Shown piece by piece: positions 8,175 to 23,863 of a stretch of DNA of 32,000 nucleotides. The notes beneath the pieces were generated by a model that had not been told where the DNA came from, ran no database searches, and worked only from the letters and a program-made list of their open reading frames with translations. The translations under genes were made by a program, and so were the position numbers. The DNA lies in NCBI GenBank assembly GCA_965224465.1, contig OZ245049.1, positions 3,660,001-3,692,000 of the forward strand, in the 5' to 3' direction. Origin of the DNA: Flavobacteriaceae bacterium (lineage in GTDB: Bacteria; Bacteroidota; Bacteroidia; Flavobacteriales; Flavobacteriaceae). How positions within the stretch are numbered: the first letter of the stretch is position 1; each line of letters opens with the position of its first letter.

Positions 8175-9124
8175 GTAAGCGTACGGTAAAGTACACCCTT
8201 GATTATTTATCAACAGGCTTCCAATTTTGAGGCAGTAACTCCGAAAGTTTATTAGCTTTATGTTCTGGTAATCTATTAAGGACATCACATAGCCACGTAT
8301 GTGGGTTTACGTTATTCTTTTTGCAAGTAGCAAAAAAGCTATAAAATAGAGCTATGTTTTGTGCGGATTCATGACTGCCAGCAAAGAGATAATTTTTTCT
8401 ACCAATAGCTAAAGGTCTTATGGCATTTTCTATATTATTGTTGTCTATTTCAAACCTGCCATCATCGATGTATCGTTTTAGGTTTTGCCATATTTTAAGA
8501 GTATAAGCAATTGCTTTTCCTATGGCACTTTTAGGCAGTACGTTTTTTCGCTCTTTTGTAAGATAAATTTCTATTCCGTCTAAAACAGGTGATGCATGTT
8601 TTTCTCTATATGCTTTAGTTTGCTCAATAGTTAATTCTTGTTCTTTTACTTTACGTTCTATCTTGTATAGTTTTTGAATTTCCAACAAAACAACATCCGC
8701 TCTTTTAGGATCATTATCCAGCGCCTTCTCAAAATACCGCCTAGCATGAGCCATGCAACCTAAAAGAGTAATTTCTCCTTTTGTTGTTAAGTTTTGGTAT
8801 GCAGCATACCCATCGGACTGTAGTGTCCCATTGAAATCTTTAAAAAACTCTTCTGGAACAACTTTTCCTCTCCCTTTATTGTATTCAAAAAGAACTAAAT
8901 TTTTAACAGGATTTCGATACACCCACATATACCCTCTGTGTGTTGATTTTTTCTTGTCTTTATCTAAAACCTTTAGAGGAGATTCGTCTGCTTGAATATA
9001 ATTGGCATTTTCTAAAAACTGAGCCTTAAATGTATCGTATAAAGGAGCGATAAGCTCCGAGCTTTTAGATACCCAGCCTCCAATTGTTGATTTACTTACT
9101 TTTAAATCTTGTCGTTTAAAAATT

Positions 9125-10249
9125 CTTAAATTCAACTAATAAACGCAACTTTTCGATTTGATTCTATGATGGTTATATTTTCAAAACAGAAAAGTAGGAA
9201 AACCTACCTTTCTTGTCTTGATGGATATGTATCTTACGGTCTCAAATCTCGAAAAAAGAAGTTGTATGAAACACATCACCCAAGCACAAAGATACACAAT
9301 TTGCTGCATGTTAAAACAAGGTTATAAACAGGTTGAGATAGCAGCTGCTATAGGAAAAGACAAGTCTGTTATTAGCAAAGAGATTAAGCGTAATTCAGAC
9401 AAAAGAAATGGAGTTTACAAGCATGAATTAGCCCAAAAAAAGTATGCTAAACGTCATAAAGAAAAGCCTAAAAGAAAACGCTTTACAGAAGATATTCAAC
9501 AAGCAATAGAATTGTTATTGCGAGACGATTATAGTCCTGAGCAAGTAGTTGGTATCCTAAAAAAACAAGGTAAAGAAACGGTGTCTATTGAGCGTATATA
9601 TCAGCATATTAGGGAAGACAAGAGGAATGATGGTGATTTACATACACACCTTCGCAGACAGGGAAGGAGATATAGAAAACGTGGCTCATCAAAGGATTCT
9701 AGAGGGGTTATAAAGAATCGCATTAGTATAGAACAACGACCTGAAGTTGTTGAACAAAGAAATCGATTTGGAGATTTAGAGGTCGATTTAATCATAGGTA
9801 AAAACCATAATCAAGCCATACTTACCGTAAATGATAGAGCTTCTGGAATGCTTAAAATGAAAAAAGTAAGCTCTAAAGAAGCAGTTGTTGTCACCAAAGC
9901 TATCAATGAAATATTAGAAGACTGGAAGCCTTATCTACATACTATAACAGCTGATAATGGAAAAGAATTTGCAGGCCATGAGCAGGTTGCAGAAAATTTA
10001 TGTATTGATTACTTTTTTGCGCATCCATATCACTCTTGGGAAAGAGGATCTAACGAAAATTTAAATGGTTTGATTAGACAATATTTTGCCAAAGGAAGTG
10101 ACTTTACAAACCTAACAGATCAAAGAATCAAAGAGGTAGAAACAAAATTAAATAACAGACCTAGGAAGAGACATAAATACGAAAACCCTATATTTGTAAT
10201 GGAACAATTATTATTTAACTAAAAGTTGCGTTTGTGACTTGAATTCAGC
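9125..10249 (+). mobile_element. IS30-family insertion sequence, copy B
   Basis: Collinear with 5120-6244 at a constant offset of 4005 nt. I saw no mismatch by eye, and the encoded 334-aa proteins are identical. 3-bp duplication ATT at 9122-9124 and 10250-10252. Inserted inside IS66 tnpC. Confidence 0.9.
9218..10222 (+). CDS. IS30-family transposase (identical to 5213-6217)
   Basis: Translation identical to the copy A transposase. Confidence 0.9.
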   Translation: MMDMYLTVSNLEKRSCMKHITQAQRYTICCMLKQGYKQVEIAAAIGKDKSVISKEIKRNSDKRNGVYKHELAQKKYAKRHKEKPKRKRFTEDIQQAIELLLRDDYSPEQVVGILKKQGKETVSIERIYQHIREDKRNDGDLHTHLRRQGRRYRKRGSSKDSRGVIKNRISIEQRPEVVEQRNRFGDLEVDLIIGKNHNQAILTVNDRASGMLKMKKVSSKEAVVVTKAINEILEDWKPYLHTITADNGKEFAGHEQVAENLCIDYFFAHPYHSWERGSNENLNGLIRQYFAKGSDFTNLTDQRIKEVETKLNNRPRKRHKYENPIFVMEQLLFN

Positions 10250-10424: not shown

Positions 10425-11839
10425 GGTTGTGTAATTTAAACTCTGTCTGCTTGTTTTTTTCTACGTTTTAAAATAGTTCGATTTTCTCTTCATAAGGCTG
10501 CTTTAAAAATCGAACTATTTTAAAATGAGCCCCAGCGGCTAGCGTCACGAACTGCTTCCGTTTTTATGTAAATCCAACGTTATTCGATCTTCAAATTTAA
10601 TATATAATTGTTGAATTGTCAAGCACCAATTATGTAAAGGGTTTGTCCATTTTTTTTCGATATTTTTTGTTGCTAAGTAAACAAGCTTCAATAGTGCCAT
10701 ATCACTGGTAAAAGCCCCTTTTGTTTTAGTTACTTTTCTTACTTGTCTATGAAAACCTTCTACTGCATTTGTTGTGTAAATTATTTTTCTGATAGGTTCT
10801 GTATACTGAAAAAACTGAGATAACTCTTCCCAATTACGGTTCCAGCTTTCTAAAACTACAGGGTATTTTTCTCCCCATTTTTCTTCTAATTTCAATAACT
10901 CCAACTCAGCAATATCTTTATTAACTGCCTTGTAAACAAGCTTTAAATCTCGAATAAATTCTTTTTGATCTTTGGAAGCTATATACTTTAAAGAATTACG
11001 AATTTGATGAACAATACACTTTTGAATTTGTGTTTTAGGAAATACACTCAAGATAGCTTCTGAAAACCCTTTTAAGTTGTCTGTACAGGCAATTAGGATA
11101 TCCTTAAGCCCTCTGTTATTAAGGTCTGTCAATACTTGAAGCCAAAAATTTGCGCCTTCACTTTCTGAAATATACATTCCTAAAACCTCTTTTATCCCTT
11201 CTTTATTTACTCCTAAAACATTGTAAAGTGCTTTGTGTTGTATTTTACCGTCTACTTTTACCTTGTAATGCATAGCGTCAAGCCAAACAATGCAGTACAT
11301 CTGTTCTACTGGACGACTTTGCCATTGTTTTATATCGGGTATGATCTTATCTGTAATTTGACTTAAAACAGTGTGTGATATATCTGTATCATACATCTCT
11401 TTTATATGACCAGAAATATCGCGTAAGCTCATTCCTAAGCCATATAATCCAATGATCTTATCTGATAAATTATCTGCTAAAATGGTTTGACGCTTTTTTA
11501 TCAGAACAGGCTCGAAACTACTATTTCTATCCGCTGGCGTACTTATTTCAAAACTACCAATACTAGTTTTAACAGTCTTTTTGCCCTTTCCGTTACGTTT
11601 ATTCCCTTTAGAACGTTCCTCTTCACTAAGGTGTGATTCCATTTCTGCTTCCAATGCTTTCTCAAGAAATTGTTTCATTAAAGGAGCAAAGGCACCTTCT
11701 TTTCCGAATAAACTTTTTCCTGATAATAATTGATCCAATGCCTTTTTTTCAATGTTGGCTAACTCGTCTTTTGTCATGTTTTCTGTTTGAATAAAGTTAA
11801 TACTTTTTTTTATTCAGACAGAGTTGAGTTTACAGTCCC
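10425..11839 (-). mobile_element. IS256-family insertion sequence (1415 bp) inside IS66 tnpC
   Basis: Imperfect 25-bp terminal repeats (GGTTGTGTAATTTAAACTCTGTCTG at 10425; GGGACTGTAAACTCAACTCTGTCTG reverse-complemented at 11839; 19/25 match). 8-bp duplication TACAAAAA at 10417-10424 and 11840-11847. Removal restores ...PLSVFVRRIVRPKYA in tnpC. A 19-bp perfect hairpin (about 10467-10525) lies downstream of the transposase stop. Confidence 0.85.
10545..11777 (-). CDS. IS256-family (mutator-type) transposase
   Basis: 410 aa. Typical N-terminus (...LLSGKSLFGKEGAFAPLMKQFLEKALEAEMESHL...RNGKGKKTVKTSIGSFEISTPADRNSSFEPVLIKKRQ) and DDE core (VWLDAMHYKV...ACTDNLKGF...QKCIVHQIRNS...YTTNAVEGFHRQVRKVTK). 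Confidence 0.9.
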   Translation of the reverse strand: MTKDELANIEKKALDQLLSGKSLFGKEGAFAPLMKQFLEKALEAEMESHLSEEERSKGNKRNGKGKKTVKTSIGSFEISTPADRNSSFEPVLIKKRQTILADNLSDKIIGLYGLGMSLRDISGHIKEMYDTDISHTVLSQITDKIIPDIKQWQSRPVEQMYCIVWLDAMHYKVKVDGKIQHKALYNVLGVNKEGIKEVLGMYISESEGANFWLQVLTDLNNRGLKDILIACTDNLKGFSEAILSVFPKTQIQKCIVHQIRNSLKYIASKDQKEFIRDLKLVYKAVNKDIAELELLKLEEKWGEKYPVVLESWNRNWEELSQFFQYTEPIRKIIYTTNAVEGFHRQVRKVTKTKGAFTSDMALLKLVYLATKNIEKKWTNPLHNWCLTIQQLYIKFEDRITLDLHKNGSSS

Positions 11840-12300
11840 TACAAAAACGGAAAGAGGCGTTATTTCTAAAAGCTCTGTAACTTCTTCTCCTATTTTTACA
11901 GCTCCTTCTTCTATGTGCTTAGGCTCTATAATCTCTTCTACTCGCGGAAAATGCGCAGGTATAGAAGAGCGAACAGGTTTTTTCTTTCCTTTCTTCTTTT
12001 GTTTTCTTTCGTAGATTACAATATGTTTTTTGTATGCCTCTTCTTTCTCAGCTATTATTTTTCCAAAAAGCGACAATTGACTTGTGTCAACAGGGATAAA
12101 ACGTTCGCTTTTAGACCCGAAAACCATTCTTTTAAGCTCCTCCGTATTGCTGCTTAATTTCAGCTAGTTCTTGAGCTGTTTTTTCAAGTTCAATCTTTAA
12201 AATTATAAGCTCTTTTTGTATGTCTATTGTATTGTTTTCCACACTATAAATATACGAAAAACAAGCCTAAATAGCAGGTAAAACCTACAGTTTTATTGAA

Positions 12301-12654
12301 TTATTTAGCCTCTAAATAACGTTCGTTTTTCTGAGTATTTATAATACTAATTCCGTCTAAAACCATAACCATTTGGGTATAACTCAAAACTACTAATCCA
12401 TCTTCAATGTCGTATTTTGGAAGCTCAAAAATACCTCGTTCCAATCGTTTATAATACAGTACAAATCCTCCAGGTCGCCAATGAAGAAGTTTTAGTTTAT
12501 TTTTTTGCTTATTGATAAATGCATAAACACTATCTCTATCTCGCTCTTGTTCCATGTGCTCACTAACTAATCCACTTAATCCATTAAATCCTTTTCGCAT
12601 ATCAACTGCAGATAAGTGATAATAATACGTGTGTTCTGTACCTAATCCTAACAT
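12301..12654 (-). CDS. tnpB: IS66-family accessory protein TnpB (Orf2)
   Basis: 117 aa with the conserved VDMRKGFNGLSGLV...VYAFINKQKNKLKLLHWRPGGFVLYYKRLERGIF pattern. Lies just inside the IS66 end and upstream of tnpC. Confidence 0.85.
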   Translation of the reverse strand: MLGLGTEHTYYYHLSAVDMRKGFNGLSGLVSEHMEQERDRDSVYAFINKQKNKLKLLHWRPGGFVLYYKRLERGIFELPKYDIEDGLVVLSYTQMVMVLDGISIINTQKNERYLEAK

Positions 12655-12781
12655 TTATATTTTCGTTTTTGTTTAGATGCAAAAATTAGATTATTTTTAA
12701 CTTCTTACAAGATGTAGTTCTCCGTACGCTTACGCTGAAAAGTGTAAGGGTGGACAAAGTAATTAGGGACGATTGCCAAAG

Positions 12782-12820
12782 AAAAAACCTGTATTTCATA
12801 GTTGAAATGCAGGTTTTTTT
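12782..12820. terminator. Bidirectional rho-independent terminator-like hairpin
   Basis: A-run, stem CCTGTATTTC / GAAATGCAGG (one G-U pair), 6-nt loop, T-run. Near-copy of the hairpin at 17976-18015. Confidence 0.6.
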
Positions 12821-13039: not shown

Positions 13040-13156
13040 TATCAATTACAATCCAAAAAGACAGATATTGTAGTTTGTTTTACGTGTTAGCGTTGTTGAA
13101 AAATAGAACAAAAAATAATTCTATTTCTAAACCGTCACTTGGAAATGTATTTGGTA
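13040..13156 (+). repeat. ~117-bp repeat element bounded by inverted repeats (MITE-like), canonical copy
   Basis: Starts TATCAATTACAATCCAAAAAGACAG and ends ACCGTCACTTGGAAATGTATTTGGTA; the ends are imperfect inverted repeats of each other. A 41-nt block (GAACAAAAAATAATTCTATTTCTAAACCGTCACTTGGAAAT) is identical to 30286-30326. Related copies at 18108-18214, 30067-30387 and 30928-30991. Confidence 0.75.
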
Positions 13157-13544
13157 GTAAACCTTCAGTAGAAAAGCCTTTTTTTATGAATTACGGAGTT
13201 TGTTTGTAAGTTTATTGAGTGCTAATATGCTTAAAAAGTGCTTATACGGCGTAAAAATGAGTGAAAACTTTTTAATTTTTCTTTTATCTCTTGATTTTTT
13301 GTAATATATTCGCTTCTTAATGTGTTATGTGCTTTACGTGTGTAATGCTTGTATGTTTCTAATAATGAGTATTTTAATGCTATTATTAGCTGTTTATTTT
13401 TGATTAACCCCGATAAAAAAGACTTTGAAATTTGAGCTGTTTAGCCATAAATTAACGTTTATGCGTTGGATTTGGCATACTATCAATAAAAAGTCGTAAT
13501 TATTTTAACATATTGAAGATTTTCAATATTAATAAGTATAAATT

Positions 13545-16500
13545 ATGAAAAAAAAGTATCTAATTTCTTATTTACTTCTTATGAGTATGCATGTTGTACT
13601 CTTAGCGAAGCCTATTTACAAGAATAATCATGTAGGTCCTTATTGCGATGTCCCTGTTGTAAATGAGAGTAAAACTAAGGGAGATTCATTAATAGTGGCG
13701 GCTGCAAATAATTCGTTTCTAATAGCGTCTCATGGATTTAGTTTAAAGGCACCAGAAGAAACATCATGTAGTTTGCCTGTTTGGTATGAGAAAAGAGACT
13801 ATTCAGTAAATTATTATGTCAGTTATAATAATAAAGTATACCAGTCCAACGGATGGATTGGGAATTCTGAGGCTGCTCCACCCAGTAATACAAAATGGAC
13901 TTTGATAGGAGATTGTACTCTAAAGGTTGTACCTCTAACAACAGACTGTGACTCAGCTAAAACGTGGAATGAAAAAGAGAAAAATTACAATGCCTCAGAC
14001 AAGGTAATGTATAATAATGGCTTGTATAAAGCAAAGTATTGGGTTGCAGGAAGTGACCGCCCAGATAAGTCTGAAGCGTATGACTTTATAGGGGTCTGTG
14101 TAACGCCTCCTGAGATAACATCAACTTACAGCAATGCCACAACTATTGTGCAAAGTAGCATTCAAAATGTTCTAATAAGTGCAAAAATTTTAGACTTTGG
14201 TTTTTCTCCCTTGGCAGTGGATTTTATGGTAAAAGAAAAAGGAGCATCTACATATACAAAACATTCCATGAAGAATTCTTCGGGTGATTTATATACCTTT
14301 AGTTGGACGCCATCCTCGTATGGAGATTTTGAGATTATTATTAAAGCGACCAACTTGGTAGATGTTTCTTCTGAAATGATTTCATCTATAAAAATTGCAT
14401 TGAGTACGCCTCCAATAGTACGTTTAGTAGAGCCTAAAGACAATTCAAAATTTATTCAATTAAATTTTGAGCCCATAGAAATTGTGTTTACAGCTTCTAA
14501 GACCGCAAAAAAAATATCAAAAATATGGGTTAAGGACATCACAGCTTCTACATCTAATACAATTTCAGTAGCTCAAAAAGATCAATATTCATATCAATGG
14601 ACTCCCAAAAGTTATGGAAAAAATATTTTAGAGCTTGTAGTGGAAGATGTTTTAGGGACATCTACAACCGTTAGTTTTTCATATATGCTTGTGGATCCAT
14701 CAAAAGAAACAGTTTCATTTACCTCTTTGCCTAATCAGATAAAAGGTATAAAAGGTGTCACTAAAGTATTTACTTTTGATGAAAAAATCACAAAAGTATT
14801 GAGTAGAAGGGTCGATTTATGTAACCTATCATTCTCAGGAAATACACTTACGGTTTCAAATCCAATAGAAGGAAGAACGGGACTTGAAATTACAACGGAT
14901 AAGGGTTCTTATTATGTTGGATTAAGAATTGATAAAAAAAACGGAGAGGTAGCAGAGCTTCCTGGGTATCTATCTTTAGGCTCGGTTTCAGAAGATATTG
15001 GTGGTGATATTAAGTTTTGGAGAGACCTAGATAATACCAATCTTTTGAAAAATAAAAGAATGGATATCAGATATATTTATGTGAATGGAGGTCCGTTAAT
15101 AGGGTGGAATACCTGGCAGCCTGATAGGGTTACAAAGTTTACAAGAAACAGCCTTAAGTTAGGGATTATACCTTTATTTGTTTTTTATAATATTCCAGAT
15201 GGGGGTGAATCATATACTACCAATAAAGGACATATTGAAAACCCAACGTATATGAAAGCTTATTTTAAGAATTTAACATTGTTTTTTGATCATGTAAAAC
15301 AAGAGGTGGGAGATGAAATGTTTATGGTTATTTTAGAACCTGACTTTTTGGGGTATATGCAACAAAATAATCAGACTGCAAGCATGCCTACTTCCGTAGG
15401 CTTAAATTCAATTGGAAATAATGCAGGGACACTTCAAACGCTGGTACAGCGAATAAACATGGAGATTAATAACAGAAGGGAAAAAGATAATTTGAACTTT
15501 GTGTATGGTTGGCAATATAATTTATGGGCTAAAGGAGGTGTTTCTGGAGCTAAGGGGATTGTGAGAGAAACGGATACCGGAGATTTCGCAACTAAGCTGG
15601 CGAAAATAAAACAAACAGGTGCTGATATTACCAAATACGGTATGGAACTAGGTACCTTGAGCCATGATGCGGATTTTATTTCAATAGATAAATATGGATT
15701 AGATGCATTAGGAGCTCCAAGTGGAAAGAAAGATCCTGATGGTTATACATGGTTTTGGAACAACGATCACTGGTTGAATTACTTAGCAATGGTAAAATCA
15801 ATGTCGGAAACGGCGAACAAGCATGTGATCCTTTGGCAATTGCCTGTAGGGCATATTAATGGAAGTCAAGCTGTTTCTGAGTATACGGGAGCACCTTTCC
15901 CTCTATTTACTAATAAATCCAAACATTATGAGGATTCAGCATCTACGTTCTTTTTTGGTGATGAAGTAGATTTTAGTAATAATACAGATAGATTCAGTTA
16001 CTTTTCGCAAAATAAACATAAAGACCCAAAACTTAAGGTTGATGCAGGAACGAAACATGTAACGTTTGGAGACCATTTTGCAGAAGCCAATAAGTCTGGT
16101 GTACGAATAGTACTAATGGGTGCAGGAGTTGGAGATAGTACAGATGGAGTAGGAGCTCCTCCTACAGATGATTATTATTGGATTCAAAAAGTCCAAAGAT
16201 ATTATACAGGACAATTGACAACAGATAAAGTTGATGCAGATAAAGATGGAGTGTTTGACAATTTAGATAAATGTCCCAATACACCAAGTGGAGAAAAGGT
16301 AGATTCCAAAGGCTGCTCTGATGGTCAGTTGGATGATGATAATGACGGTGTTCCAAACAGTATTGACGATTGCCCTAATACTTTGATTGGGGTAACGGTG
16401 AACAAAAAAGGATGTGTGGATAATCAACAGGATTCGGATAATGATGGTGTTTTAAATGCTTCTGATCAATACCCAAATACACCTAATGGAGCCGTAGTAG

Positions 16501-17273
16501 ATGGGAATGGTGGTGTCATTTTAAGCGGGAATACGTTTAGCCTTTCACAAACAGGTCTTACCTGCCCTAATAAAAATAACGGGACCATAACACTTACAAA
16601 TGCATCTCCGTATCTTTTTGATGTTCAATTTTCAAGTCCAAATAAACCTGCTATTACTATAGAAGATGCGCTTGAAGCCAAAGGGAGTCATACAATTACA
16701 AATTTACCTCCTGGTGAATATCGTTTTACTATGAAGTTTGATAAGAATTTGGGAATCGATATAGGTGAGTATGTTGTTAAGGTTGCAGATGCTGCTAAAA
16801 TATCAGGAAAGGTATTAGAAACCGACAAAGCAAGTAAAACAACCACTGTAAAAGTAAAAAATGCGAAGGTTTATCATGTAAAGGTAAACGGGAATTACCT
16901 TAAAACAGTAACGTTTAAAACTATTGATAGTCATCAAATTGTAGTTCCATTAAGTGTAGGTGACAACCATGTTAATATTAGTACAGATGCTACATGTAGA
17001 GGATCTGTGGATACATGGATTACAATTGCTGGTTCTGTTGAGTTTTATCCAAATCCAACGGTAGGGGACGTATTTATTCGAGGCTTAAAACCAGGGATGA
17101 TTCATATAAAAATTGTTACCTTAAGTGGGCAAGTAGTTAAAACAATAAGCAAACAATCAGCCGATGGTACGTTGCAACTTTCAGTAGCGCATTTACATGA
17201 TGGTGTGTATATTGTACATCTTTCTGGTTCAGAAAATAAAAACATATTACCTTTTAAAATTGTTAAAAAATGA
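13545..17273 (+). CDS. T9SS-sorted multidomain secreted protein: two CBM5/12-like modules, Ig-like repeats, central putative glycoside-hydrolase-like domain, three thrombospondin type-3 calcium-binding repeats, C-terminal Por sorting domain
   Basis: Signal peptide. Aromatic chitin-binding-type modules (WYEKRDYSVNYYVSYNNKVYQSNGW; WNEKEKNYNASDKVMYNNGLYKAKYW). TSP3 repeats (DADKDGVFDNLDKCPNTP, DDDNDGVPNSIDDCPNT, DSDNDGVLNASDQYPNTP). Last ~80 aa (FYPNPTVGDVFIRGL...LHDGVYIVHL...FKIVKK) fit the type A T9SS C-terminal domain. The central region carries motifs in GH6-like order (see finding). Confidence 0.8.
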   Translation: MKKKYLISYLLLMSMHVVLLAKPIYKNNHVGPYCDVPVVNESKTKGDSLIVAAANNSFLIASHGFSLKAPEETSCSLPVWYEKRDYSVNYYVSYNNKVYQSNGWIGNSEAAPPSNTKWTLIGDCTLKVVPLTTDCDSAKTWNEKEKNYNASDKVMYNNGLYKAKYWVAGSDRPDKSEAYDFIGVCVTPPEITSTYSNATTIVQSSIQNVLISAKILDFGFSPLAVDFMVKEKGASTYTKHSMKNSSGDLYTFSWTPSSYGDFEIIIKATNLVDVSSEMISSIKIALSTPPIVRLVEPKDNSKFIQLNFEPIEIVFTASKTAKKISKIWVKDITASTSNTISVAQKDQYSYQWTPKSYGKNILELVVEDVLGTSTTVSFSYMLVDPSKETVSFTSLPNQIKGIKGVTKVFTFDEKITKVLSRRVDLCNLSFSGNTLTVSNPIEGRTGLEITTDKGSYYVGLRIDKKNGEVAELPGYLSLGSVSEDIGGDIKFWRDLDNTNLLKNKRMDIRYIYVNGGPLIGWNTWQPDRVTKFTRNSLKLGIIPLFVFYNIPDGGESYTTNKGHIENPTYMKAYFKNLTLFFDHVKQEVGDEMFMVILEPDFLGYMQQNNQTASMPTSVGLNSIGNNAGTLQTLVQRINMEINNRREKDNLNFVYGWQYNLWAKGGVSGAKGIVRETDTGDFATKLAKIKQTGADITKYGMELGTLSHDADFISIDKYGLDALGAPSGKKDPDGYTWFWNNDHWLNYLAMVKSMSETANKHVILWQLPVGHINGSQAVSEYTGAPFPLFTNKSKHYEDSASTFFFGDEVDFSNNTDRFSYFSQNKHKDPKLKVDAGTKHVTFGDHFAEANKSGVRIVLMGAGVGDSTDGVGAPPTDDYYWIQKVQRYYTGQLTTDKVDADKDGVFDNLDKCPNTPSGEKVDSKGCSDGQLDDDNDGVPNSIDDCPNTLIGVTVNKKGCVDNQQDSDNDGVLNASDQYPNTPNGAVVDGNGGVILSGNTFSLSQTGLTCPNKNNGTITLTNASPYLFDVQFSSPNKPAITIEDALEAKGSHTITNLPPGEYRFTMKFDKNLGIDIGEYVVKVADAAKISGKVLETDKASKTTTVKVKNAKVYHVKVNGNYLKTVTFKTIDSHQIVVPLSVGDNHVNISTDATCRGSVDTWITIAGSVEFYPNPTVGDVFIRGLKPGMIHIKIVTLSGQVVKTISKQSADGTLQLSVAHLHDGVYIVHLSGSENKNILPFKIVKK

Positions 17274-17953: not shown

Positions 17954-17975
17954 TTTGTTTTTTTATAAGTAAAGT

Positions 17976-18015
17976 AAAAACCTGTATTTCTATGTTGAAA
18001 TACAGGTTTTTTTTT
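17976..18015. terminator. Bidirectional rho-independent terminator
   Basis: A-run, perfect 10-bp stem CCTGTATTTC / GAAATACAGG, 6-nt loop, 9-T run. Sits between convergent genes. Confidence 0.7.
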
Positions 18016-18037
18016 GTCAACTTTTAGGGCTTGGTGT

Positions 18038-18072
18038 AAAAAAACCTCGAAACTATTGTTCGAGGTTTTTTT
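18038..18072. terminator. Second bidirectional terminator hairpin
   Basis: A-run, 9-bp stem AACCTCGAA / TTCGAGGTT, 7-nt loop, T-run. Confidence 0.65.
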
Positions 18073-18107
18073 ATTCCCTAAAGATGTTTTTGGGAACGGA
18101 TACGTAT

Positions 18108-18214
18108 ATCAATTAAATTTCCAAGTGGCGGTTTATAAAACAGATTATTTTTACAAGCTGTTTGTAAAAAATAATTCAATATGATAATGCGACTTTATAT
18201 AAATAAATTGGTAT
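18108..18214 (-). repeat. Inverted-repeat-bounded repeat element, diverged copy immediately 3' of tssC
   Basis: On the + strand it reads TATCAATTAAATTTCCAAGTGGCGGTTTATAAAACAGATTATTTTT...AAATAAATTGGTA. This matches the reverse complement of the 13040-13156 element ends (TACCAAATACATTTCCAAGTGACGGTTTAGAAATAGAATTATTTTT...). It ends 17 nt from the tssC stop codon. Confidence 0.6.
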
Positions 18215-18231: not shown

Positions 18232-19575
18232 TTATTGTTGCTCATATTCTGCATCCCATTCAGTACCATCATCTCCTTTTTGTCCGTCCATTTTAATCAT
18301 AAAATTCTTAGCAGGAAAATAAGGTTTCATGTGTATGTCTAAGTACACTCTGTCTTTCTGATTTGGATCTTGTTCAAATCTTTTGATGGTAAAATCTTCG
18401 ATTAATTTATCAGGACCTGTTATGTTGTCTAAGAACTTTACAATCTGATTCATTAATTCTTTACGAGTTCTAGCGTTAAAGTTTTCAAAAGCCCTACGGT
18501 TTAAGAAATCCATTAATACTTTTGTTACGTAATCAAATACACGTACAACGGAGTAGGTTTGTAGTCCTAAATTATCTCCATTAAATAATGTTTTTGCAGA
18601 GAAAGCCATTACTTTACCGTATTCGTTAACCATAGGAATTAGTCCGAGTTTTTCAATTTGTGATATTTCTGATTTTTTCAAATCAAATTTAACTCCAGAA
18701 ACTTCGTTTAATCCACCATGCTTTTTACCAGCAGTAACTTGGGACATTAGGGTTCTATAAACTTTACCTGCGAGTGCCGAAGATGGTGGGATAAATAAAT
18801 CTTCTTCCTCTCCAACTTCATCAAATTTTCCTCTTCCGACGAGCCAGTTACACGTCATCATAACATTGGATTTATAGTTGTCTCCACTTGTTAAATTTGC
18901 AGCTTCAAACATTTCCATAACATCATCCGGTTCGTCTAGGTGTTCAAAATCAGTAATTAACATCACCTTATTATTGTAAGCTATTTTAGCCCATTTTTCA
19001 ATAATTGCATTGTTTTCTAGATATCCAGGGATCACTAATATTCCGTAATTATCTCTTAAATCTAAACGGTCATAATTATCTTTTAATTCTTCAGATACAG
19101 CATCTATAAAACGCGTGTTGTCTAAATCTCGCATTTGTTCTGGGTCTGCGTTTAAGATAGTTACGTTTTTTATCTTATCTGCTTCTGTATTTTTATAAAA
19201 CATGGATAAGGAGCGATATGATCTTTCTAGCTCTTTGGTATCCTCAATTGCCATACCTACATTTTTCACTAATGTTTCATGTGCAATTTTAGATTTTTCC
19301 TGAGCTTCTCCGATCATTTTAGCGACGTCACCTTCACCTTCTTCAAGTATTTTTTGCCAAATTTCTAATGTTTTTTTAACTCTTTTTCGTTCAAGTTTTT
19401 TAGAGTTTTCTGTTAAAAATATTTTTTTTCTAGCTTTTCTTTCTGGGTTTAAATTTTGAGATCCATCAATGGTTGCTTCTACTAAATCGAACCCTCCAAA
19501 TCTAGCCAGTTTTTCACTGCTTTCTAGTACCTTTTCAACAATGCTTTTAGTACTTTGTTCTTGTGCTTGAGCCAT
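18232..19575 (-). CDS. tssC: T6SS contractile sheath large subunit TssC
   Basis: 447 aa, directly downstream of tssB. VipB/TssC-like conserved core as I recall it for Bacteroidetes TssC (NYGILVIPGY, MMTCNWLVGRGKF, GLNEVSGVKFDLKKSE, QTYSVVRVFDYV). Confidence 0.9.
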   Translation of the reverse strand: MAQAQEQSTKSIVEKVLESSEKLARFGGFDLVEATIDGSQNLNPERKARKKIFLTENSKKLERKRVKKTLEIWQKILEEGEGDVAKMIGEAQEKSKIAHETLVKNVGMAIEDTKELERSYRSLSMFYKNTEADKIKNVTILNADPEQMRDLDNTRFIDAVSEELKDNYDRLDLRDNYGILVIPGYLENNAIIEKWAKIAYNNKVMLITDFEHLDEPDDVMEMFEAANLTSGDNYKSNVMMTCNWLVGRGKFDEVGEEEDLFIPPSSALAGKVYRTLMSQVTAGKKHGGLNEVSGVKFDLKKSEISQIEKLGLIPMVNEYGKVMAFSAKTLFNGDNLGLQTYSVVRVFDYVTKVLMDFLNRRAFENFNARTRKELMNQIVKFLDNITGPDKLIEDFTIKRFEQDPNQKDRVYLDIHMKPYFPAKNFMIKMDGQKGDDGTEWDAEYEQQ

Positions 19576-23521: not shown

Positions 23522-23570
23522 AAACACAAAGAATTGTACTCAATTAAGGAGCGTACAATTCTTTGTGTTT
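23522..23570. terminator. Long hairpin between convergent genes
   Basis: Perfect 18-bp stem AAACACAAAGAATTGTAC / GTACAATTCTTTGTGTTT with a 13-nt loop. No clean T-run on the + strand. Confidence 0.45.
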
Positions 23571-23863
23571 GGACTAAAAATAATGAATAGCCGTATCTAG
23601 TGTGCTGTTTATCATCAAAAACAATAGAAAAGGAATTGTTTGTGTTGGGGCTTCTTCGCTATTATCAACATCGCATGAATTTCGAATGGATTAAAAACCT
23701 TCTTAAAAATGGATTGATTCTTCCAATCTCCTAACTTTTTAACATATATGCTTCAAAAAAACAATTCCATTCGCATACCTTAGTCTTATTTCTCTTATTT
23801 CTTTCTAGCGCTAATAGTAATGATGGTTTGTTTTTAGAGCGATAAATATTTTTTTACAGCTAT

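Follow-up and report, generated by a model that had tools for sequence, protein, structure and literature searches.

A MITE family with a TAA/TTA target, and its probable bearing on the repeats that follow tssC and hcp genes in a Flavobacteriaceae bacterium

The locus and the repeat copies within it

The window considered here, that is, the whole stretch of 32,000 nucleotides that was analysed, contains genes of a T6SS, a gene for a protein with a T9SS sorting domain and a group of insertion sequences (IS), and among these lie copies of a short repeat, found just beyond the stop codons of tssC, hcp1 and hcp2 and also upstream of the T9SS cargo gene. The names given to these genes in an initial annotation, made from the sequence alone, agree with Pfam; exact-protein look-ups for Hcp1 and for the window TssC returned no record.

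13545 to 17273, forward strand: protein with a T9SS sorting domain (Pfam)
18232 to 19575, reverse strand: tssC, T6SS sheath (PF17541, E 4.8e-234)
29680 to 30066, forward strand: hcp1 (TssD; Pfam Hcp)
30503 to 30898, forward strand: hcp2 (TssD; Pfam Hcp)

The stretch between the T6SS effector genes and the first repeat copy (copy A, below) is occupied by a nest of IS30-like, IS66 and IS256 elements. Two 1127-bp copies of the IS30-like element, 100% identical to each other (5118-6244 and 9123-10249), encode a 334-aa transposase with HTH_38 and rve domains and have the ends AATTCAA...CGCAACTTTT; the second directly adjoins a truncated IS66 transposase gene (8203-9135) and is followed by an IS256-family transposase gene (10545-11777) and more IS66 parts (11810-12127 and 12301-12654). 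A near-perfect long hairpin, with about 24 bp per arm, occupies the gap that separates the IS30-like copy from the IS256 transposase gene (10461-10530), and gave spurious Rfam microRNA matches. At the left edge of the window, a 149-nt direct repeat of 90% identity (1-149 and 2844-2992) is common to the adjacent large ORFs 60-1523 and 2621-4402, the latter with a phage-lysozyme domain, and looks like an N-terminal module common to T6SS effector candidates.

The repeat family is genuine at all four sites at which it had been reported, its end motifs being far commoner than chance would allow. The left-end motif TACCAATTACAATCCAAAA, at up to three mismatches, is found four times in the window against 0.07 expected (at 13040, 30067 and 30178, and at 30991 on the reverse strand), and the right-end motif AAACCGTCACTTGGAAAT five times against 0.08 (at 13129, 30309 and 30360, and at 18134 and 30955 on the reverse strand). 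The window holds four to five family members, arranged as follows, with the duplicated target triplets of the third site included.

13040 to 13156, forward strand: copy A, a 117-nt member without the central 42 nt (nhmmer E 2.5e-17, model positions 2-159)
18107 to 18213, reverse strand: copy B, a degenerate member lying some 18 nt past the tssC stop
30064 to 30066, forward strand: left target-site duplicate of copy C, identical with the TAA stop codon of hcp1
30067 to 30387, forward strand: copy C, a composite whose outer element (30067-30174 plus 30337-30387) is split by an inner full-length element
30178 to 30336, forward strand: inner element of copy C, the full 159 nt (profile E 2.4e-46, positions 1-159)
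30388 to 30390, forward strand: right target-site duplicate (TAA) of copy C
30928 to 30991, reverse strand: copy D, a 64-nt short form made of the left end and the right end

Several particulars of the initial annotation change on closer inspection. Copy A, which lies 389 nt upstream of the gene for the T9SS-sorted protein with the flanks TTA and GTA, had been taken as the canonical 117-nt unit; the canonical form has 159 nt, and copy A is a deletion derivative of it. Copy B was correctly located, its coordinates moving from 18108-18214 to 18107-18213, and clear family homology is confined to its right end (18107-18152; 46 nt, 80-83% to the right end of the family), the remainder being an older remnant common to the window and to a sister strain described below. 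Copy C, which begins at the first base past the hcp1 stop, had been read as one long copy and is in fact a full 159-nt element nested inside another. Copy D lies 29 nt past the hcp2 stop, within the hcp2-vgrG spacer and in the orientation opposite to that of copy C. A candidate fifth copy at 23558-23648 was not counted (E 0.001 only, with no recognisable ends).

Anatomy, target site and mobility of the element

We defined the full element from eight intact copies of 158-159 nt, from which a family profile was built. It is 159 nt long, non-coding and A+T-rich, and forms an imperfect palindrome throughout: once reverse-complemented, the profile still aligns with itself from end to end (positions 1-159), and the ends, previously described as imperfect inverted repeats, do indeed pair imperfectly over about 30 nt (TACCAATTACAAT-CCAAAAT.ACCG / CGGTCACTTGGAAATGTAATTGGTA). 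Every copy starts and ends with TA. The predicted fold is one long imperfect hairpin, with a free energy of -41.8 kcal/mol and a z-score of -6.7 for the inner element at 30178-30336 (-41.3 kcal/mol and -5.5 for a second fold). Short derivatives consist of the two ends only, and measure 57 nt (loci L007 and L023), 58 nt (L009) and 64 nt (window copy D). There is no coding capacity: members measure 57-159 nt, and 321 nt as nested composites, which leaves no room for an ORF.

With the left end as query, a scan of a species-representative genome collection returned 43 loci, about 25 of them chance matches in unrelated sequence. The true copies all fall in Flavobacteriaceae MAGs of one project (North Pond, NORP), bar a single contig binned as Labilibaculum: NORP150 accounts for 15 left-end matches on 14 contigs, and further copies occur in NORP167, NORP129 and NORP270, and on the contig binned as Labilibaculum NORP351. 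By sequence, no relatives were found in Rfam, in plasmids and phages (blastn), in viral contigs or in JGI metagenomes; metagenome scans with the left end and the central hairpin gave 0 matches, and scans of viral contigs gave 0 true matches and one chance match inside a phage ORF. This is a MITE family of marine Flavobacteriaceae that has a narrow host group and was not previously described, the kind of element being one already known. The Labilibaculum copy (L030 2869-3026 of JAESUW010000033.1; full length, E 1.3e-49) scores as high against the NORP-built profile as do the NORP150 copies, and the 9.6-kb contig that holds it has been placed in a different order, which suggests either recent transfer or misbinning of a co-assembled contig.

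Directly outside the terminal TA...TA lies a 3-nt direct repeat, which is perfect in 12 of 20 independent insertions (binomial p 7e-16 against local base composition). In these 12 cases the duplicate is always TAA or TTA and always direct; the inverted combination, which is what would be expected if the triplet merely extended the inverted repeat, was never found. Nested insertions at two further loci (L007 5084-5242 and L043 3982-4140), each with a TTA duplication, point the same way, as excising the inner element together with 3 nt gives the host element back its normal 20-nt stretch, and they serve as paralogous empty sites; among the loci compared, no clean orthologous empty site was recovered. 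A perfect duplication is absent from the other 8 insertions, and in 5 of these one flank is TAC or GTA, so that the last 3 nt of the element itself are repeated where the TWA duplicate would stand. Such TAC|TACC or GGTA|GTA junctions occur at the right flank of copy A (13157-13159), the right flank of copy D (30992-30994, forward strand), the left flank of the inner element of copy C (30175-30177), and in L030 and L021. The simple duplication model does not explain these flanks, nor does the left junction of the nested insertion in the window (TAC / GAA) fit a clean TWA duplication.

The initial annotation had described each copy as bracketed by TA, and this stands insofar as TA is present at both termini, as the element's own ends; the duplication itself is the 3-bp TAA/TTA outside them. 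The wording implied an element of IS630 or Tc1-mariner type, comparable to RUP or Correia, that duplicates the dinucleotide TA, and terminal TA is typical of bacterial MITEs (PMC2229807), is shared by every copy here, and would allow a TA duplication plus 3 additional nt as a reading of the nested insertion in the window. Such a reading leaves the additional TAA/TTA direct repeat of the 12 insertions unexplained, and in L007 and L043 it is only the excision of the element plus 3 nt that restores the host length; we regard it as very unlikely.

On our reading the element is a non-autonomous DNA transposon, moved by a transposase supplied in trans, as its insertion into TAA/TTA with duplication of those 3 bp implies. 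A 3-bp TNA/TWA target-site duplication is a mark of IS5 / PIF-Harbinger-type transposition, and from the target we infer a putative transposase of this type. An autonomous partner IS with the same terminal repeats, which the initial annotation had proposed to look for, was not seen in the window, in the sister strain or in about 200 kb of related DNA, and an all-against-all blast of the related loci found the MITE to be the only repeated DNA. The IS elements of the window (IS30-like, IS66, IS256) and the IS1595 of the sister strain were considered as partners and rejected, their ends being unrelated.

Movement of the family is seen both between loci and between strains. An identical 57-nt form occurs at two unrelated loci (L007 4308 and L023 3431), each time with its own TTA duplication, and the 321-nt nested composite likewise occurs at two unrelated loci (L007 and L043) with a TTA duplication of its own at each, the similarity between the two ending exactly at the duplications, so that any DNA lying between two ends moves as a unit; there are three mobile size classes, of 57, 159 and 321 nt. 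The sister strain, a metagenome contig (ERZ25073217; L046/L047) that is 99.7% identical to the window, has identical copies C and D. Two differences from the window were seen: the tssC remnant is immediately followed by an additional family member of 136 nt that the window lacks, and an IS1595-family element (L046 16637-17719; ends GGCTCAAC...GTTGAGCC, 8-bp duplication TTGAAAAA) interrupts the sequence corresponding to copy A, which is uninterrupted in the window. These nested insertions and this difference between near-identical strains, together with the terminal inverted repeats, the target-site duplication and the several size classes at unrelated loci, bear out the original reading of the repeat as a MITE.

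The same contig has an extra degenerate 117-nt member at L046 18120-18236, absent from the window, whose sequence is rearranged there, and an ORF of 65 aa (L046 18217-18414, reverse strand) that reads into the left end of this member and stops at an internal TAA.

Bacterial MITEs have been described as elements of less than 200 bp with terminal inverted repeats, terminal TA, a high A+T content, target duplication and an end-to-end stem-loop, lying mainly between genes and often co-transcribed with the upstream gene (PMC2229807). The window family shares this structural definition with RUP of S. pneumoniae, Correia/NEMIS of Neisseria and ERIC, and differs from all of these in having no sequence similarity to them, in its 3-bp TAA/TTA rather than TA duplication, in its marine Flavobacteriaceae host and in having no known partner IS. 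With Tourist / PIF-Harbinger elements and IS5 subgroups it has in common the 3-bp TWA duplication, short inverted-repeat ends and nesting. IS5 family ends are G-rich, and those of the window family (TACCAATTAC...) are unlike them. Within the same phylum (Bacteroidota), the MITEs BrickBuilt, MITE293 and MITE700 of Porphyromonas gingivalis are IS5-derived, having been assigned via end similarity (PMC4596501); their ends (GAGACCTTTGCA) are unrelated to those found here, and they are larger, with internal tandem repeats and variable duplications (PMC4596501).

That palindromic repeats just past stop codons could be REP/BIME units mobilised by a RAYT transposase, or integron attC sites following gene cassettes, can practically be dismissed: the element is 159 nt long with terminal inverted repeats and target duplications, both the attC core GTTRRRY and the conserved REP tetranucleotide are missing, no integrase or RAYT lies nearby, and the neighbours are T6SS, IS and chromosomal housekeeping genes in normal operons.

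Placement at gene ends and the question of co-option

The position of copies B, C and D after three T6SS structural genes had suggested co-option of the repeat as a terminator, a 3' stabiliser of the mRNA, an sRNA or a protein-binding site. This is unsupported, as the same placement is found beside unrelated housekeeping genes. The neighbours of the family in the NORP MAGs are ligA, comEC, a met-zincin, an aminotransferase fusion, hmuY, a histidine phosphatase and a rhodanese/MBL gene, with no T6SS gene among them; both orientations relative to the upstream gene occur. The duplicated triplet is itself the stop codon of hcp1 in the window, of ligA in L012 and of a thioredoxin-like gene in L009, where the convergent genes were originally 4 nt apart and the stop codon was therefore almost the sole tolerated target.

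To quantify the bias, we removed the element sequences from both the window and the MAG loci, and took all intergenic TAA/TTA sites in the same DNA as the null. Three of 19 insertions lie exactly on a stop codon (2% of the intergenic TAA/TTA sites do so), 9 of 19 lie within 30 nt of an ORF stop (11% of sites), and for 17 of 19 the nearer gene boundary is a 3' end and not a start, against 47% under the null (Mann-Whitney p 2e-4, binomial p 1e-4). The sample is small and ORFs were called crudely, yet the bias is clear. The initial annotation had held that copies randomly distributed with respect to genes and orientation would speak for a plain MITE; in the window and the MAGs, orientation is indeed mixed, and positions are biased to the 3' ends of genes, these genes being unrelated to one another.

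We consider it highly probable that the repeats are copies of a MITE with a TAA/TTA target and that their positions after tssC and the hcp genes reflect the general behaviour of the family rather than a role in the T6SS. Since the target duplication re-creates a TAA stop codon, insertion on a stop codon is harmless, and in a tightly packed genome a stop codon would be one of the few tolerated sites; this tolerance, along with the loss of insertions in coding sequence and promoters, would leave survivors in the spacer between stop codon and terminator. The copies after tssC, hcp1 and hcp2 would then be instances of this general insertion behaviour. The TAA/TTA target accounts at least partly for the 3'-end placement. 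The observed bias exceeds what the supply of TAA/TTA sites predicts, and the excess could reflect selection against promoter insertions, targeting, or a benefit from the hairpin.

Two of these possibilities can be phrased as a more specific, and in our view improbable, proposal: that the element is directed to the stop-terminator spacer by a preference of its transposase, or is kept there for an effect of the transcribed hairpin on the rate of mRNA decay. In the first version, the transposase would prefer TAA beside terminator hairpins or a DNA structure associated with termination; in the second, the lineage would own a movable 3'-UTR module on the highly expressed hcp1, hcp2 and tssC.

The surroundings of the window copies bear on what role, if any, the transcribed element might play. 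Copies B, C and D are each followed, after 27-41 nt, by a terminator-like hairpin; two of these hairpins are given here.

18046 to 18075, both strands: bidirectional terminator-like hairpin (CCTCGAA...TTCGAGG, with T runs on either strand); on the tssC strand it follows copy B at a distance of about 30-40 nt
30428 to 30459, forward strand: strong hairpin that resembles an intrinsic terminator and has a T run, 41 nt past copy C

The second is likely the native hcp1 terminator. These calls come from our own terminator detector, which placed hairpins beyond the element at the three window copies and at L023, and they apply to those loci rather than to the MAGs in general. With hairpins beyond B, C and D, the copies lie inside a 3' UTR or an intercistronic spacer and not at a transcript end, and they are probably co-transcribed as 3'-UTR or intercistronic hairpins. 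A predicted 3'-UTR hairpin of -42 kcal/mol may in that position affect the mRNA incidentally.

In its strongest form, the case for co-option is that the element acts as a 3'-UTR RNA which blocks 3' exonucleases, or terminates transcription partially, and so raises hcp and tssC relative to the genes downstream. A parallel exists in enterobacterial REPs, palindromes of about 35 nt that are mobilised by RAYT, lack target duplications and act as 3' stabilisers of mRNA in operons. The likeness lies in a stable hairpin that follows a stop codon and precedes the next gene or terminator, with stabilisation established for REPs and putative here. The great predicted stability of the hairpin, a 3'-end bias in excess of the supply of TWA sites, and the location of copy D between hcp2 and vgrG, two genes for which differential expression would be sensible, are all in keeping with this, as is the apex of the full-length element, where a 6-bp hairpin runs into T-rich tracts on either strand.

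This apex hairpin, which copies A and D and the 57-nt and other short forms lack, is, however, weak and the only terminator-like feature that the element has; nowhere does the element show the G+C-rich hairpin, directly followed by a U tract at a transcript end, of an intrinsic terminator. The terminator-like hairpins beyond the window copies and the mixed orientation weaken the idea further, as does the same placement beside unrelated housekeeping genes, and copy A lies upstream of a gene rather than downstream of one. Folding and covariation analysis, suggested at the outset as a check, returned a stable hairpin and no covariation: across 11 full-length copies, too alike for a strong test, RNAalifold gave a covariation term of +0.53, with double changes in 2 pairs only and single-sided changes that break pairs. 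A search of Rfam 15 over the whole window, at E up to 1, produced no match on any copy; weak matches to trpB, rimP and mir-553 fall on other hairpins.

Comparison with related systems also speaks against co-option. No family members were found in seven T6SS loci with TssC about 87-90% identical (among them those of Tenacibaculum geojense, a Polaribacter MAG and a Flavobacteriia MAG), which have a terminator about 20-60 nt past the tssC stop, and hcp followed by vgrG after 44 nt. As these loci work without it, the element is best seen as a recent, lineage-specific addition to the T6SS locus, and we judge co-option as a 3'-UTR RNA to be improbable.

For T6SS biology, the message from the MITE reading is mostly negative, the element being a lineage-specific passenger. 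More generally, repeats found right after stop codons need not signal regulation, given that an element targeting TAA/TTA rebuilds the stop on which it lands. The finding is a modest one, since MITEs are very common in prokaryotes (present in 56.5% of 183,232 genomes, with about 90% of them intergenic; PMC11602168), and the family may be of use for telling strains apart and for tracking down its transposase.

Finally, two bidirectional terminator-like hairpins in the window (12778-12820 and 17971-18013; AAAAACCTGTATTTC...GAAATACAGGTTTTT) are 88% identical to each other and, with a third of the same type in L046 near 18010-18040, may represent a second small repeat family.
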